Shown here one piece after another: positions 1 through 4,111 of a stretch of 4,111 bases of DNA. Position numbers and translations under genes: made by a program. The stretch is from a virus (lineage: Duplodnaviria; Heunggongvirae; Uroviricota; Caudoviricetes), in the IMG/VR virus record IMGVR_UViG_2695420687_000011, one strand, 5' to 3'. The notes below the pieces were generated by a model, which was not told the origin of the DNA, searched no databases, and saw only the letters and a program-made list of their open reading frames with translations. Position 1 is the first letter of the stretch, and the number at the start of each line of letters is the position of its first letter.

Positions 1-328
1 GATGACGCATGGCCTGTAACCGGATGCGGCGTTCACTCTGCATCCGGCTACACAAATTTACTCCGCCAGAAAAAGCTCCAGCAGCGAATTTAAAAACAAC
101 TTCCCATGTTCCGTTATCTGCCAGTAATCCGCACATTCGGTGAGATAGCCCTGAGCGATAGCCTCGTCTCATCCGTTCTTGCTCTTCAATCACCTCGTTA
201 TTGTTGACGATGACATCCTTAGCAAAACGAAATACCGGATAACCCGTATCTTTGAGTTTAAATACGCCGCCCCAGGCCAGGTTCTGAAGCGGGGCGACAA
301 AAAAAGTGGTCACGCTGAATACCAGACA
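1..328 (-). CDS. Partial ORF of unknown function running off the left edge; start uncertain (GTG at 328-326 or ATG at 172-170)
   Basis: Minus-strand frame is open from the TAA at RC 341-343 to position 1 (about 113 codons). It lies downstream of and co-directional with the Cro-like gene, where lambdoid phages carry cII/replication genes. No convincing SD, the frame reads through the REP-like hairpin, and the ambiguous bases at 384-391 obscure the upstream region. Confidence 0.3.
20..47. repeat. REP-like palindromic element: perfect 8-bp stem CCGGATGC (20-27) / GCATCCGG (40-47) with a 12-nt loop
   Basis: Inverted repeat read directly. The CCGGATGCGGCG and GCATCCGGCTAC arms resemble the E. coli REP consensus as I recall it (GCCGGATGCGGCG...TTATCCGGCCTAC). 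No T-run follows on either strand, so it is not an obvious terminator. Confidence 0.4.
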
Positions 329-383
329 CAGGCTGTCGAATTTATTCCAGCGTATTTTTTCGCGCTCTTTTTTTCGCCTGACG

Positions 384-391
384 NNANTNNN
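384..391. other. Run of ambiguous bases (nnantnnn) in the assembly
   Basis: Seven N characters at 384-385, 387 and 389-391, interrupted by a (386) and t (388). They break every reading frame across this point. Confidence 0.95.
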
Positions 392-443
392 TCTGACAGC
401 TTTCACGTACCACTCAGGCTGTTTTTCCACTTTCCAGTGATGC

Positions 444-704
444 TTACCCACGGCTTACCTCCTTTTCCTGTGGTTTTAACTCATTCCGGTTTTGATTAGA
501 TTGAAAGCGGGCAGGATAGAGAATCTGCATTTCGCTGATTTCTCCCTTAAAAAAATTGGCCAGACGCTCTGCCAGATCGATAGATGGAATTTGTTCCAGT
601 CTCTCAATACGACTCAGCGTCGCTGGATTAACCTGAACACCCGCAGCAACATGCTGCAAAGTAAATCCGTGCGCCTTACGCACATTTCGTAATGGTGATT
701 GCAT
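444..704 (-). CDS. Cro-like HTH transcriptional regulator (XRE family), 86 aa
   Basis: ATG at RC 702-704 preceded by SD GGAGG (RC of 709-713) with a 4-nt spacer. HTH-like segment GFTLQHVAAGVQVNPATLSRIERLEQ. Divergent from the CI-like gene across a 97-bp palindrome-rich region. TAA stop at RC 444-446. Confidence 0.8.
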   Translation of the reverse strand: MQSPLRNVRKAHGFTLQHVAAGVQVNPATLSRIERLEQIPSIDLAERLANFFKGEISEMQILYPARFQSNQNRNELKPQEKEVSRG

Positions 705-801
705 ATAACCTCCACATATTGCGTGATAAGCATATTATTTAACGCAAATATTTTGCGCAAGTTGATTTGCTTAACGCGCAATAAAGAAATGTAATAAACG
801 C
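705..801. promoter_or_regulatory. Divergent promoter/operator region between the Cro-like and CI-like genes (OR-like)
   Basis: Palindromes read directly: TTGCttaacgcGCAA (767-781), CGCAAAtatTTTGCG (743-757), TTGCGCAA (753-760), imperfect TTGCgtgataaGCAt (719-733). Candidate leftward promoter: -35 TTGCGC (RC of 755-760), 17-bp spacer, -10 TAATAT (RC of 732-737). Candidate rightward -10 TAATAA (792-797) would start the repressor mRNA at or near its ATG. Promoter calls are by eye only. Confidence 0.6.
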
Positions 802-1494
802 ATGAACATAGGAAATCGAGTCAGACAACTTCGCCAGGCGAAGAACATGAAAATCGCCGATCTCGCTGAAGCAATAGGAGTGGATGCGGCGAATATCTCA
901 CGCCTGGAAACAGGTAAGCAGAAACAATTCACTGAACAAGCCCTGAGTAATATTGCCAGGAGCTTAGGTGTTGATATTGCAGATCTCTTTACCTCAGACT
1001 TCAAAAGTAATACTGTATGTAAAAACAGTGCTTGTGAGGATGTTGCGCAGGTGAAGGATGTATTCCGTATTGAAATGCTGGATGTCAGTGCCAGTGCGGG
1101 AAATGGCCTTATCCAGGGCGGTGATGTCATTGATGTGATTCATGCCATTGAATACAGAACTGATAATGCTGTATCGATGTTTGGCGGACGGCCAGCCAAT
1201 CACATTAAAGTTATCAACGTTCGTGGGGACAGTATGTGTCCAACCATTGAGCCAGGAGATCTCATCTTCGTTGATGTCAGTATCAATCAGTTTGATGGAG
1301 ATGGTATCTATGTATTTGGTTTTGATGATAAAATTTATGTCAAACGACTGCAAATGATACCTGACAAACTACTGGTGATTTCTGATAACCAGATTTACCG
1401 TGAATGGGGAATTACCAGCGAAAATGAACACCGGTTTATGGTCTTTGGAAAGGTCTTAATCAGCCAGTCACAAACCCTTAAGCGACACAATTAA
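802..1494 (+). CDS. CI-type phage repressor: N-terminal HTH (XRE) plus C-terminal S24 LexA-like autopeptidase domain, 230 aa
   Basis: N-terminal HTH pattern NIGNRVRQLRQAKNMKIADLAEAIGVDAANISRLETGKQ. S24 catalytic motifs present: GDSM with Ser144 (codon 1231-1233), Lys181 in VKRL (codon 1342-1344), candidate Ala99-Gly100 cleavage bond (1096-1101). TAA stop 1492-1494. No clear SD upstream, consistent with a leaderless or weakly initiated message. Confidence 0.9.
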   Translation: MNIGNRVRQLRQAKNMKIADLAEAIGVDAANISRLETGKQKQFTEQALSNIARSLGVDIADLFTSDFKSNTVCKNSACEDVAQVKDVFRIEMLDVSASAGNGLIQGGDVIDVIHAIEYRTDNAVSMFGGRPANHIKVINVRGDSMCPTIEPGDLIFVDVSINQFDGDGIYVFGFDDKIYVKRLQMIPDKLLVISDNQIYREWGITSENEHRFMVFGKVLISQSQTLKRHN

Positions 1495-1514
1495 CCCTTA
1501 CCTCCTCATCAATT

Positions 1515-1539
1515 AGCCACCCGAAGGTGGCTTTTCATT
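1515..1539 (+). terminator. Candidate rho-independent terminator after the repressor gene
   Basis: Stem AGCCACC (1515-1521), loop CGAA, stem GGTGGCT (1526-1532), followed by TTTCATT. Lies 21 bp after the repressor stop. Confidence 0.5.
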
Positions 1540-1549
1540 ACCCATTAAA

Positions 1550-1602
1550 TTGCATATCTCGCAACAAAAACACTTGCATAATGCGCAACTTCATTTTATC
1601 TT
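1550..1602 (+). promoter_or_regulatory. OL-like tandem operator palindromes with candidate rightward promoter
   Basis: Two 15-bp TTGC-N7-GCAA palindromes, TTGCATATCTCGCAA (1550-1564) and TTGCATAATGCGCAA (1574-1588), centres 24 bp apart, same half-sites as 767-781. Candidate promoter -35 TTGCAT (1574-1579), 17-bp spacer, -10 TATCTT (1597-1602); weak match, by eye. Confidence 0.4.
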
Positions 1603-2013
1603 TCTTTCCAGACAAACAAACAAGGTACTAACAAAATTTGGTTGTAACACGGCGTATGGCACATGCGTCGTTAGCGGTCTGGGGACGTTAAAGGGGACAA
1701 TCCACTCCTTGCTCGGGCAAACAAACCAGGTAGCCGGAATGTGCAAGTCAATGATGATGCTGATAAGACGCCTAACCAGCGTCGCGATTCGGTTTGACGC
1801 CTGGGAAGAGACCAGGGTGCAACGATGAGGGCATTTATGGAACCGCGACAAAGTGTGGTGCCGTAACTGGCTAAGTGCTCTCAGCGTTGTGGTAATCCGC
1901 GAAATGGCGCGGCGGTAAGTATGGCGGGGTTATTCCTTCCCCGTTGAGGACACCGGGTTGTCAGGTTGACCATACGCTTAAGTGACAAGCCCACCACAAC
2001 AGCCACTGCTTTG

Positions 2014-2060
2014 GCGGTACCAGTTTGTACACTTGCTTCCGGCTGGTACCGCTCTTTTTA
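2014..2060 (+). terminator. Terminator-like hairpin: 10-bp stem with T-tract
   Basis: GCGGTACCAG (2014-2023) pairs with CTGGTACCGC (2043-2052) around a 19-nt loop, followed by TCTTTTTA (2053-2060). The loop is long for a classical intrinsic terminator. Confidence 0.4.
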
Positions 2061-2148
2061 CAAAACAGAGAAGAGCATCACCGGACGACGGGCTCATAAC
2101 CCAATCCACCCGGGCGGCTGCCACCGCAGGTGCTCTTCTCTGTTTTGT
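2060..2148. repeat. Perfect 18-bp inverted repeat flanking a 53-bp GC-rich spacer
   Basis: ACAAAACAGAGAAGAGCA (2060-2077) is the exact reverse complement of TGCTCTTCTCTGTTTTGT (2131-2148), verified base by base. Sits 36 bp upstream of the yfdP-like SD. Function unknown. Confidence 0.85.
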
Positions 2149-2196
2149 GGAGAAACCAACCGACCTTGCAGGGTCGATATGATGAGGAGCAGCAAA

Positions 2197-2559
2197 ATGG
2201 CTAGCGAACGCAGTACTGATGTGCAGGCATTTATCGGGGAGCTGGACGGCGGCGTATTTGAAACCAAAATCGGCGCTGTTCTCAGTGAAGTCGCTTCAGG
2301 TGTGATGAACACGAAAACCAAAGGGAAGGTCTCGCTCAACCTGGAAATCGAACCGTTTGATGAGAACCGTGTGAAAATAAAACACAAACTCTCATATGTT
2401 CGTCCGACTAACCGCGGGAAAATTTCCGAAGAAGACACCACCGAAACGCCGATGTATGTCAATCGCGGTGGTCGCCTGACTATTCTGCAGGAAGACCAAG
2501 GACAATTACTGACTCTTGCCGGTGAACCTGACGGAAAACTCCGCGCAGCAGGTCATTAA
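2197..2559 (+). CDS. yfdP: YfdP-like prophage protein of unknown function, 120 aa
   Basis: ATG 2197 preceded by SD GAGGAG (2184-2189) with a 7-nt spacer; TAA stop 2557-2559. Sequence (MASERSTDVQAFIGELDGG...) and length match my recollection of E. coli K-12 CPS-53 YfdP; not verified by search. An alternative start at ATG 2179 (AGGG SD at 2170-2173) cannot be excluded. Confidence 0.8.
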   Translation: MASERSTDVQAFIGELDGGVFETKIGAVLSEVASGVMNTKTKGKVSLNLEIEPFDENRVKIKHKLSYVRPTNRGKISEEDTTETPMYVNRGGRLTILQEDQGQLLTLAGEPDGKLRAAGH

Positions 2560-2624
2560 TATCGTTCTTAATTAACTGATTATTTATCTCATCACTGAAT
2601 ATCCTTATATAGTGAGGACTTATT

Positions 2625-3449
2625 ATGTCTCAGAACTTAGACGCAACCGCAATTAATCAAATCCATGCCCTTATTTCTGCTCAGGGTGTTAATGAAATTA
2701 TTAGTAAGATTGGTGCCGATGCTGTGGCATTGCCTGAGAATTTCCGCATTCATGATCTGGAAAAATTTAATTTAAATCGCTTCCGTTTCCGTGGTGCGCT
2801 TTCCACTGCCAGCATCGATGACTTTACCCGTTATTCTAAAGATCTTGCAGATGAAGGCACCCGCTGCTTTATCGATGCCGATAATATGCGTGCCGTCAGT
2901 GTGCTTAACCTGGGTACTATTGATGAACCAGGTCACGCAGATAACACCGCCACTCTCAAACTGAAAAAGACAGCACCGTTCTCTGCTCTGTTGTCTGTTA
3001 ATGGCGAGCGTAACTCCCAAAAGTCACTGGCAGAATGGATTGAAGACTGGGCCGACTACCTTGTGGGCTTTGATGCTAATGGTGACGCCATTCAGGCAAC
3101 CAAAGCGGCTGCGGCGATCCGTAAAATCACAATTGAAGCGAACCAGACCGCTGATTTTGAAGACAATGACTTCAGCGGCAAACGCTCCCTGATGGAGTCT
3201 GTCGAAGCGAAGACCAAAGACATTATGCCAGTGGCATTTGAATTTAAATGCGTTCCGTTTGAAGGCCTGAAAGAACGTCCGTTTAAATTACGCCTCAGCA
3301 TTATCACTGGCGATCGTCCTGTACTGGTTCTGCGCATTATTCAGCTGGAAGCGGTGCAGGAAGAAATGGCTAACGAATTTCGTGATCTGCTTGTTGAGAA
3401 ATTTAAAGACAGCAAAGTAGAAACCTTTATTGGTACTTTCACCGCCTGA
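2625..3449 (+). CDS. yfdQ: YfdQ-like prophage protein (DUF2303 family), 274 aa
   Basis: ATG 2625 preceded by SD GAGGA (2614-2618) with a 6-nt spacer; 274-codon ORF with TGA stop 3447-3449. Sequence ([21 protein letters not shown]...) and length match my recollection of K-12 YfdQ; not verified. Confidence 0.85.
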
Positions 3450-3461
3450 TTTCATTACTGC

Positions 3462-3483
3462 AAATGCCCCTGCGGGGGCATTT
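3462..3483 (+). terminator. GC-rich hairpin between yfdQ-like and yfdR-like genes (terminator or mRNA stability element)
   Basis: AAATGCCCC (3462-3470), loop TGCG, GGGGCATTT (3475-3483): 9-bp stem whose A/T ends give a short T-run (CATTTAT). Begins 13 bp after the yfdQ stop. Confidence 0.3.
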
Positions 3484-3576
3484 ATGGAAACATAATTTAC
3501 TCAATAATCGCCGGATGGTGAGGGCTTCCTTTTACCAGAATTCAGCGCGGTGCAGCGCATATACGTGGAGAACAAA

Positions 3577-3936
3577 ATGTCATTTATTAAAACTTTTTCC
3601 GGGAAGCATTTTTATTATGACAAGATAAATAAAGACGACATCGTTATTAACGATATCGCGGTTTCCCTTTCAAATATCTGTCGCTTTGCAGGACATCTTT
3701 CACACTTCTACAGCGTCGCCCAACATGCGGTGCTTTGCAGCCAGCTGGTACCGCAGGAATTTGCTTTTGAAGCGTTAATGCATGATGCAACAGAAGCATA
3801 TTGCCAGGACATCCCCGCACCACTGAAACGCCTTCTTCCTGACTATAAACGGATGGAAGAAAAAATAGACGCCGTAATCCGTGAGAAATACGGGTTACCT
3901 CCTGTTTGCTGGTTAATCAGGCAGTTACCGGCATAG
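3577..3936 (+). CDS. yfdR: YfdR-like HD-domain protein, apparently 3'-truncated (119 codons; the K-12 protein is longer as I recall)
   Basis: ATG 3577 preceded by GGAGA (3566-3570). HD-superfamily signature H...HD present (GHLSHFYSVAQH, ALMHDATEAY), but the ORF ends 9 codons after KYGLPPV (CWLIRQLPA then TAG at 3934-3936), before the distal Asp expected in HD domains. Sequence character changes near 3906. Confidence 0.7.
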   Translation: MSFIKTFSGKHFYYDKINKDDIVINDIAVSLSNICRFAGHLSHFYSVAQHAVLCSQLVPQEFAFEALMHDATEAYCQDIPAPLKRLLPDYKRMEEKIDAVIREKYGLPPVCWLIRQLPA

Positions 3937-4111
3937 TTCCAGATCATCTTGATTGGAACATCCAGCTTATCTTTACCACGAACACCGTCACGCAGCGCCG
4001 TCATCTCCGGGCCGCGTTCAATCGCATCGGTCCACATAAACATGGAAATGCTGGTCTGGATCGGATTCTCGAGAGTAGGCATACGAACAAACGGTAAGCT
4101 GTATGAACCTT
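3843..4111 (-). CDS. C-terminal part of an unidentified minus-strand ORF entering from beyond the right edge
   Basis: Minus-strand frame is open from 4111 to the stop at RC 3843-3845 (...GSYSLPFVRMPTLENPIQTSISMFMWTDAIERGPEMTALRDGVRGKDKLDVPIKMIWNYAGN...). Its last ~21 codons are antisense to the yfdR-like 3' end. Product not recognised. Confidence 0.45.
   Translation of the reverse strand, partial: GSYSLPFVRMPTLENPIQTSISMFMWTDAIERGPEMTALRDGVRGKDKLDVPIKMIWNYAGNCLINQQTGGNPYFSRITASIFSSIRL

Follow-up and report, generated by a model that had tools for sequence, protein, structure and literature searches.

In phage lambda, the PL operon comprises OL/PL, nutL, the N leader with its RNase III hairpin, N and the recombination genes. 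In the lambdoid phages the trio yfdP, yfdQ and yfdR was reported in 2025 to be common in early-left operons; one member is a putative 5'-nucleotide phosphatase, and the other two are without known function (PMC12315714). The cryptic K-12 prophage CPS-53 (KpLE1) carries a similar set, yfdPQRST, and is the locus for which binding of YfdR to DnaA and inhibition of initiation were shown. The DNA described here (the window) is a viral stretch of 4,111 bp, the entire contig CDRK01000964.1 of the draft assembly GCA_000936005.1. It contains yfdP, yfdQ and a part of yfdR downstream of a CI-like repressor gene (Table 1). The window probably covers the immunity region of a lambdoid prophage similar to SfV, SfII and mEp460, together with the beginning of its early-left (PL-type) operon.

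The early-left operons of SfV/SfII, mEp460, PhiR47_1 and CB9615 are built alike, with cro, cI, terminator, operators, leader, yfdP, yfdQ and yfdR at 95-98% DNA identity. The immunity region of SfII is ~90% identical to the window, and SfII lacks the yfdPQ cassette. In comparison with this group, only the window has a yfdR gene that breaks off at 3906 and runs into dmsA-like DNA. In mEp460 and in the intact prophage of CB9615 the order is int-(dsr1)-DUF551 genes-yfdS-yfdR-yfdQ-yfdP-gap-cI, followed by cro-ymfL-replication-nin-type genes-Q-lysis, with a gap of ~700 nt between yfdP and cI. The map is of the standard lambdoid type, and its early-left operon begins with yfdPQR. Past yfdR, the operon of the intact relatives continues with yfdS, DUF551 genes, xis and int, and synteny through to xis/int was found for CB9615, mEp460, ST64B and phiNP. 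A megablast search of 5,426 complete E. coli genomes detected bases 392-3906 at ~98% identity in 634 of them (~12%), where the genes bear the names XRE regulator, yfdP, yfdQ and yfdR; these genomes carry at least 80% of the window. The same block is present in the phages PhiR47_1, PhiR40_1, PhiR55_1 and mEp460 and likewise in SfV. With a different immunity region it occurs in cdtI, 2H10, Ayreon and many Stx2 phages. The layout of yfdP-yfdQ-yfdR behind a CI-type repressor is ordinary and already known, and the window itself adds nothing new.

Regarding lambda, the position relative to cI is the same, operators lie over the promoter, and a long structured leader precedes the first gene. DNA-metabolism genes and then xis and int follow in the relatives. 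In contrast to the lambda PL operon, the window has no N homologue and no recognisable nut site, an intrinsic terminator is conserved in its leader, yfdP and yfdQ take the first place instead of N, and there is no rexAB equivalent between cI and OL. The similarity to CPS-53 starts at base 2178, from where yfdP, yfdQ and yfdR are ~97% identical. In CPS-53, cI, cro and the operators are lost, as is all of the conserved leader with the terminator-like hairpin T1 and the junction RNA, and a yfdO remnant stands upstream instead. CPS-53 keeps a full-length yfdR together with yfdS and yfdT, which are absent from the contig examined here.

An initial annotation, made from the sequence alone, had described a yfdP-yfdQ-yfdR module linked to the repressor and had proposed that it controls host replication or excludes superinfecting phages. 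The observation was confirmed and the interpretation as a whole turned out to be half right. All three genes lie on the plus strand where they had been placed, with open reading frames (ORFs) and Pfam and PHROG matches in agreement (PHROG 204 for YfdP, DUF2303/PHROG 210 for YfdQ, PHROG 318 for YfdR). They are co-directional with a repressor of SOS type, as indicated by its S24 motifs, and are situated behind operator-like sites ~600 nt upstream of yfdP. The statements that the K-12 remnant lacks the repressor and that YfdR is connected to DnaA in the literature (PMC4776307) were also accurate.

For the repressor, helix-turn-helix (HTH) families were matched in Pfam with E ~1e-11, and residues of self-cleavage were located at Ala99-Gly100, Ser144 (within GDSM) and Lys181. 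Judged by its HTH, Ala-Gly site and Ser/Lys dyad, the protein is predicted to be a self-cleaving repressor of the LexA/CI type. The hairpin downstream of cI was found by a terminator scan (fold -11.8 kcal/mol, z=-4.5); it is annotated as a terminator in SfII, and equivalent hairpins occur in ST64B and phiNP. Behind it, two exact TTGC-N7-GCAA palindromes are spaced by 24 bp and resemble the two sites between cro and cI, which sit within a 32-nt imperfect inverted repeat near a PRM-like promoter match (711-738). The -35 hexamer of the PL-like promoter is inside the second palindrome, and the spacer to the -10 hexamer, read from the sequence, is 17 nt. In ST64B and phiNP, whose YfdQ proteins are 57-58% identical, cI and a terminator are likewise followed by two such palindromes 24 bp apart, with the -35 hexamer in the second one and TATCTT or TAATTT 17 nt on. 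The operator assignment is based on the sites at both promoters and on this shared layout. The number of sites with one mismatch allowed (4 observed, 2.9 expected) is not significant; their placement is. A mosaic boundary between heteroimmune relatives was located at 1621-1630, immediately 3' of the PL-like promoter. The layout is that of an early-left operon, with a putative promoter after cI, overlapped by operators and reading toward xis/int. Soon after this promoter, ST64B (L093, 2850-2930) and phiNP (L094, 2690-2770) share a hairpin element of ~64 nt, AGCGAACAGGCAGGACGCCC...GAUUCGCU. It is absent from the window and shows no similarity to the HK022 early region.

Table 1 Features of the 4,111-bp window (positions counted from its first base)
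Feature	Position	Strand	Evidence and remarks
ymfL-like gene, 5' part, in the cII position of the rightward operon	2-451	-	Runs off the contig; aligns with CB9615 ymfL and with the SfII gene labelled cII/YmfL
Cro-like HTH protein, 86 aa, divergent from cI	444-704	-	Pfam HTH_3 E=5.7e-10; annotated cro in SfII
OR-like region	719-781		Operator-like sites 719-733 (TTGCGTGATAAGCAT) and 767-781 (TTGCTTAACGCGCAA)
CI-like repressor, 230 aa, HTH and S24 autopeptidase	802-1494	+	Pfam Peptidase_S24 E=6.5e-19; PHROG 4, 6201
Intrinsic terminator after cI	1515-1539	+	7-bp GC-rich stem (hairpin 1515-1532), then T-rich tail TTTTCATT
OL/PL-like region	1550-1602	+	Operators 1550-1564 and 1574-1588; -35 TTGCAT 1574-1579; -10 TATCTT 1597-1602
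Leader, upstream exchangeable part	1603-2012	+	No credible ORF; 1884-2004 is a multi-hairpin domain closed by GUUGUGG/CCACAAC
T1, intrinsic-terminator-like hairpin	2013-2059	+	13-bp stem, then UCUUUUU; -21.2 kcal/mol, z=-4.5
Conserved three-way-junction RNA	2060-2155	+	Long helix 2060-2084/2124-2148; apical hairpin CGGGCUCAUAACCC 2089-2102; invariant GGAGAAA 2149-2155
Small hairpin before the yfdP ribosome-binding site (GAGGAG 2184-2189)	2161-2176	+	Left edge of the yfdPQ cassette
yfdP, 120 aa	2197-2559	+	PHROG 204 E=1e-49; PF27127
yfdQ, 274 aa, DUF2303 (PF10065)	2625-3449	+	Pfam E=6e-93; PHROG 210 E=6e-120
Intercistronic hairpin yfdQ-yfdR	3462-3484	+	AAAUGCCCC-UGCG-GGGGCAUUU, no strong U-run; -16.5 kcal/mol, z=-3.0
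yfdR, codons 1-110 of 178, HD-domain 5'-deoxynucleotidase	3577-3906	+	Open frame runs into foreign DNA, stop at 3936 (119 aa)
dmsA-like fragment, not prophage	3907-4111	-	92-93% identical to E. coli dmsA in 4,936 genomes

The module had been compared both with the PL operon and with rexAB. The early-left part of this comparison was borne out. A rexAB-type cassette would be co-transcribed with cI, with no terminator between; here the terminator and the operators precede yfdP. Thus, yfdPQR belongs to a PL-type early operon and not to a rexAB-like cassette expressed from PRM. The same evidence makes it very improbable that the genes form a lysogen-expressed cassette for superinfection exclusion or anti-phage defence, although they are downstream of cI and co-directional with it and the defence gene dsr1 is found further along the operon, beside int, in CB9615. 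No defence family of PADLOC-DB was matched at E<=0.01 by YfdP, YfdQ, full-length YfdR or YfdS. Furthermore, the yfdPQ pair stands among early and replication genes in phages of Vibrio, Xanthomonas and Pseudomonas, and production of YfdQ promoted plaque formation by phage SW1 according to a preprint; it raised and did not block the production of this phage.

The statement that the module is directly wired to the repressor was too strong, since a conserved terminator hairpin with U-run and a structured RNA lie between the PL-like promoter and yfdP. The non-coding leader between the promoter with its operators and yfdP measures ~600 nt, and ~700 nt after the cI terminator are free of a credible gene. 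Relatives recombine within the leader at 1630, 1992, 2012 and 2047. The fold z-score of the upstream part is only -1.6. The last ~190 nt of the leader are found behind more than 30 different upstream sequences and are kept across prophages with YfdQ proteins only ~57% identical. This conserved part was studied in 45 leaders from viral contigs of E. coli, Salmonella, Citrobacter and Klebsiella type. A scan of viral contigs with the YfdQ alignment returned near-identical loci only and served for the mosaic junctions; for covariation, a second scan with a Klebsiella homologue was needed.

In all 40 distinct related leaders a hairpin ends 0-2 nt before at least five U, with at least six unrelated stem sequences and stabilities from -7.5 to -33 kcal/mol. 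With its stable hairpin, its U-run and a structure that is kept despite sequence change, T1 is a predicted intrinsic (Rho-independent) terminator. The U-run of T1 was also paired by RNAalifold with the invariant GGAGA at 2149-2153. At the position of the upstream leader, many related prophages have STnc100 (Rfam RF02076; L085, 4215-4437, 49.1 bits), and ST64B has a partial match (L093, 3227-3345, 35.1 bits). STnc100 and PasD were described as structural relatives and prophage small RNAs. In the relatives the STnc100 match ends at the T1 terminator. The leader of the window shares with STnc100 the closing helix GUUGUGG/CCACAAC and T1, which corresponds to the 3' terminator of the STnc100 model, yet this model (gathering score 47 bits) gave no match at E<=1 in the whole window or at E<=10 in 1780-2080. 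Rfam has no family for this leader. As the STnc100 match lies just upstream of T1 in the relatives, STnc100 may be the terminated 5' part of the early-left transcript there.

Several other candidates for the leader were considered and rejected. An antiterminator RNA of the HK022 put type was dismissed in a comparison at motif level: no shared motifs and no sequence similarity were found in the HK022 early region, which holds putL and putR, and the STnc100 model has no match there. For an N-like gene in the 700-nt gap, short or structure-overlapping ORFs were the only candidates. In mEp460 and SfII, ORFs are annotated on the minus strand over the conserved leader RNA; these are probably spurious. 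CGCUCUUUUUA at 2051-2060 could be read as boxA; it is the 3' arm of T1 with the U-run, other groups read CGCCCUUUUU here, and the likeness was judged coincidental. No tRNA gene was detected in the leader by ARAGORN.

Immediately downstream of T1 follows the junction RNA, which is not part of the STnc100 model and matches no Rfam family. Its fold reaches -48.2 kcal/mol (z=-6.8). The structure is supported by covariation: in 20 diverse sequences, 96.7% of the cells are paired, compared to 45-59% in slid controls, and eight pairs are changed on both sides, compared to 1-3 in the controls; none of 500 shuffles reached the observed values. The arm CGACGGGCUCAUAACCCAAUCCACCCGG is almost invariant, and its core motif recurs in 66 of 81 loci, where it stands 97-137 nt in front of yfdP. 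The 14 bases CGGGCUCAUAACCC are identical to positions 29-42 of the E. coli initiator tRNA-fMet (metZ), which form the anticodon stem-loop. Thus, the apical hairpin reproduces three G-C pairs and the CAU loop of the tRNA-fMet anticodon arm. The longest match to tRNA-fMet in 200 shuffles was 12 bases; this statistic is indicative only, because the likeness was spotted after the fact. The junction RNA might bind a factor of the initiator tRNA, such as the 30S P site or IF3, the methionyl-tRNA synthetase or a tRNA-fMet nuclease of VapC type, and gate or protect early expression in this way. It might equally be a processing site of RNase III or RNase P. At the position of the small hairpin that follows, other groups have CGGCGG...CCGCC.

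The assignment of both proteins of the pair was examined on the family level. YfdP is 99% identical to a cluster named 'protein YfdP', and PF27127 is precomputed for this very gene and for that cluster; by its profile and its position directly upstream of yfdQ it is a member of the YfdP family. The AlphaFold (AF2) model of YfdP, with a predicted local distance difference test (pLDDT) of 70, consists of a long helix, a four-stranded sheet and a highly conserved C-terminal tail of low confidence. YfdQ matched DUF2303 with 311.4 bits (cut-off 26.6), residues 7-272 covering the profile positions 2-269 of 269, and its AF2 model has a pLDDT of 79.5. The DUF2303 family comprises 1,840 clusters at 50% identity, and nearly all of the best-scoring 150 representatives are stand-alone proteins of 265-285 aa. 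The PDB contains a full-length homologue of YfdQ, entry 9o7m ('YfdQ Protein'; ~38% identity, E=8e-45, profile E=4e-59), for which 36 chains are listed. This homologue shares 98.8% identity with a protein from Xanthomonas phage MET23-P3 and 93.5% with ORF37 from phage CP2. In fold searches, neither the YfdQ nor the YfdP model had a convincing PDB match, and 9o7m was not returned by the fold libraries. A literature search for 9o7m, YfdQ, DUF2303 and PF10065 gave no structural paper; the structure is apparently unpublished. With YfdP profiles and two neighbouring Xanthomonas-phage proteins as queries, no partner of YfdQ in 9o7m was detected in the PDB sequence file.

A homologue of YfdP is encoded directly upstream of yfdQ in all seven distant phages compared (E. 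coli lambdoid type, ArgO145, Vibrio VvAW1, Vibrio 64E30.1, Pseudomonas LPPA56, Xanthomonas CP2 and MET23-P3; E 1e-23 to 1e-60) and in 157 of 157 enterobacterial viral contigs. Directly downstream of the pair, yfdR was present in 155 of these contigs. Outside the enterobacterial group it was found in one of six distant phages, LPPA56, two genes downstream. Thus, yfdPQ does not always travel with yfdR. The genes yfdP and yfdQ are an obligate pair, also in Vibrio, Pseudomonas and Xanthomonas phages, and yfdR is a near-constant neighbour only in enterobacterial contigs. The Xanthomonas phages CP2 and MET23-P3, the type of 9o7m, resemble the window in their full-length YfdQ homologue and the YfdP homologue directly upstream. 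In contrast to the window, their next genes encode a large unknown protein, Erf, an exonuclease and a single-strand binding protein (SSB), not YfdR, and phage type and host are different.

The neighbours of yfdPQ in the distant phages are genes for SSB, for exonucleases of DEDD and YqaJ type, and for Erf or RecT. An unrecognised function in recombination or at DNA ends was considered, such as that of a new type of protein for single-strand annealing, or of a mediator, with rings or filaments assembled on DNA. In Vibrio 64E30.1 and VvAW1 the pair lies between exonuclease genes (YqaJ-domain, DEDD) and the SSB gene with no recognisable annealing protein. In addition, 22% of the lambdoid phages are without a recognisable Rec module, and the genes of the trio are common among those (PMC12315714). 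The 36 chains of YfdQ in 9o7m fit such assemblies; the example chain is C, and chains A and B may be non-protein. A deletion of yfdQ is cited in PMC4776307 as causing a weak sensitivity to methyl methanesulfonate and H2O2. YfdQ resembled annealing proteins of the Rad52/RecT/Erf kind neither in sequence profile nor in fold, and no profile similarity to RecT or Erf was found. Overall, such an unrecognised annealing or DNA-end function is regarded as unlikely. The same applies, with somewhat greater reserve, to an early counter-defence device, that is, a decoy, sponge or cage which neutralises a host immune system. An early pair at the operon start, a portable cassette and an acidic protein in a large oligomer would fit, as would the spread across phages of several genera and the lack of enzyme motifs. 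However, fold searches gave no similarity to any known anti-defence protein, and SSB, exonuclease and recombinase genes are steady neighbours of the pair, which speaks for DNA metabolism. The pair might be a new kind of large oligomeric machine for DNA metabolism or counter-defence, shared by phages of five or more bacterial genera, some of them temperate and others apparently not.

The portable character of the pair can be seen in SfII. In this phage, the leader (2012-2173) continues straight into the hairpin at 3466 and yfdR. As the leader stands directly before yfdR without yfdPQ, it belongs to the operon start. Both break points (~2173 and 3466; L003, 5952-6113 and 6102-6542) fall in small hairpins, and thus yfdPQ looks like a cassette that is gained or lost as a unit. 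The hairpin between yfdQ and yfdR forms the right edge of this cassette, with the SfII homology resuming at 3466, and could either attenuate the transcript in its yfdPQ part or stabilise this part.

YfdR was matched to PHROG 318 (deoxyribonucleoside 5'-monophosphate phosphatase; E=1e-72). The gene agrees with the RefSeq yfdR of related prophages (97-98% DNA identity) up to base 3906, the point at which the match to all related loci ends. Nine foreign codons and a stop stand in place of the C-terminal 68 aa, so that a complete HD domain (H...HD...D ligands, ~178 aa) is not present; the Pfam YfbR-like score was 24.4 bits, below the cut-off of 25.9. As the window makes up one complete, short contig in a fragmented draft assembly, the junction of yfdR and dmsA may be a chimera or an assembly artefact. 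Alternatively, with dmsA only 92-93% identical, the host may not be E. coli proper.

The truncation bears on the second function suggested at first, the control of host replication. K-12 YfdR binds domain I of DnaA (Noguchi and Katayama 2016, PMC4776307); the binding involves Phe46 and competes with DiaA and DnaB (PMC4776307). Multicopy yfdQ and yfdR together with yfdS or yfdT inhibit initiation at oriC, in vivo and in extracts, and yfdP is not needed (PMC4776307). It could therefore be assumed that YfdP, YfdQ and YfdR act jointly on DnaA to stop initiation at oriC and that this is the main task of the trio, which is nearly invariant in the enterobacterial viral contigs. This explanation is possible but doubtful. 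Dispensability of yfdP and the requirement for yfdS or yfdT do not fit a function of the trio; Vibrio, Xanthomonas and ArgO145-type phages encode YfdP-YfdQ but no YfdR, and SfII has yfdR without yfdPQ. Moreover, the effect was seen on overexpression only, and deletions did not change initiation. With yfdR truncated and yfdS and yfdT absent, the published DnaA-inhibiting gene set is incomplete on this contig, and the control of host replication via DnaA, as proposed for the window, was not upheld.

We favour an induction-dependent early operon that is gated by its leader and consists of a yfdPQ cassette with yfdR as an add-on, and assign to it a probability of roughly 0.6. Sequence and comparison show that the gene of the LexA-like, presumably self-cleaving CI ends in its own terminator and that two operator-like palindromes follow, the second one over the -35 element of a predicted weak sigma-70 promoter. 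According to the explanation, the yfdPQR module would be silent in the lysogen and switched on after RecA-stimulated cleavage of the repressor. The transcript would first cross the leader of ~600 nt with T1, the junction RNA and the small hairpin, and then yfdP, yfdQ, the intercistronic hairpin and yfdR. Expression may then be adjusted on the RNA level, through the extent to which T1 is read through and through processing of the junction RNA or control of translation there. The genomic neighbours suggest that yfdP-yfdQ is a self-contained two-gene cassette for phage DNA replication or recombination, in which YfdQ would build a large homo-oligomer and the conserved C-terminal tail of YfdP may dock on a partner. 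As a separate enterobacterial add-on, yfdR would encode an HD-domain deoxynucleotidase that binds DnaA domain I and, with YfdQ and YfdS or YfdT, damps initiation at the host oriC during lytic growth. On this contig the latter function would be disabled, as yfdR is cut at codon 110 and yfdS and yfdT are missing.

Several points weigh against this explanation. Of the 12 positions in the PL-like hexamers, only 7 agree with the sigma-70 consensus, and the promoter scan gave no flag. Neither an N-like antiterminator ORF nor a nut/put-type element was found in the leader. T1 may instead terminate a small RNA of its own, in which case yfdP would have a promoter that escaped recognition. YfdQ is acidic (pI ~5, net charge -10), and the authors of PMC12315714 think it unlikely that the trio are hidden recombination proteins. 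For yfdR, the DnaA effect was obtained on overexpression only, its authors allow for an artefact, and gene deletion was without effect on initiation (PMC4776307).

Some further observations concern the parts beyond the module. The product of the ymfL-like gene matched PHROG 8690 over its first 22 aa only. Inside this gene, a run of ambiguous bases (gnnantnnn) at 384-391 fits the low quality of the draft assembly. In the rightward operon of several related prophages, matches to C4 antisense RNA and isrK were detected above the Rfam gathering score (L009, 1801-1989; L025, 2012-2200; L093, 617-805), which indicates an antirepressor control module of P1/P7 type in this phage group. In the CB9615 prophage (L001, 17092-20919), the defence gene dsr1, which encodes a sirtuin, is located after the early-left genes and before int. 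Thus, defence cargo is placed at the far end of the operon and not at the yfdPQR end.

With ~1,800 clusters at 50% identity, YfdP-YfdQ (PHROGs 204 and 210) ranks among the larger phage gene families without known function. The interest lies in the strictly paired, structurally novel YfdP-YfdQ family and in the conserved leader RNA with its loop similar to initiator tRNA; the operon start has the conserved terminator and, in addition, the tRNA-fMet-like structured RNA, which is described by no RNA-family library. Two readings are possible but less probable than not: the RNA of ~140 nt from T1 to yfdP may be an undescribed cis-regulatory element of lambdoid early-left operons, and YfdP-YfdQ may be a new kind of large oligomeric machine. 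Understanding either the pair or the leader RNA would shed light on how temperate phages stage their early expression and handle DNA replication after induction.

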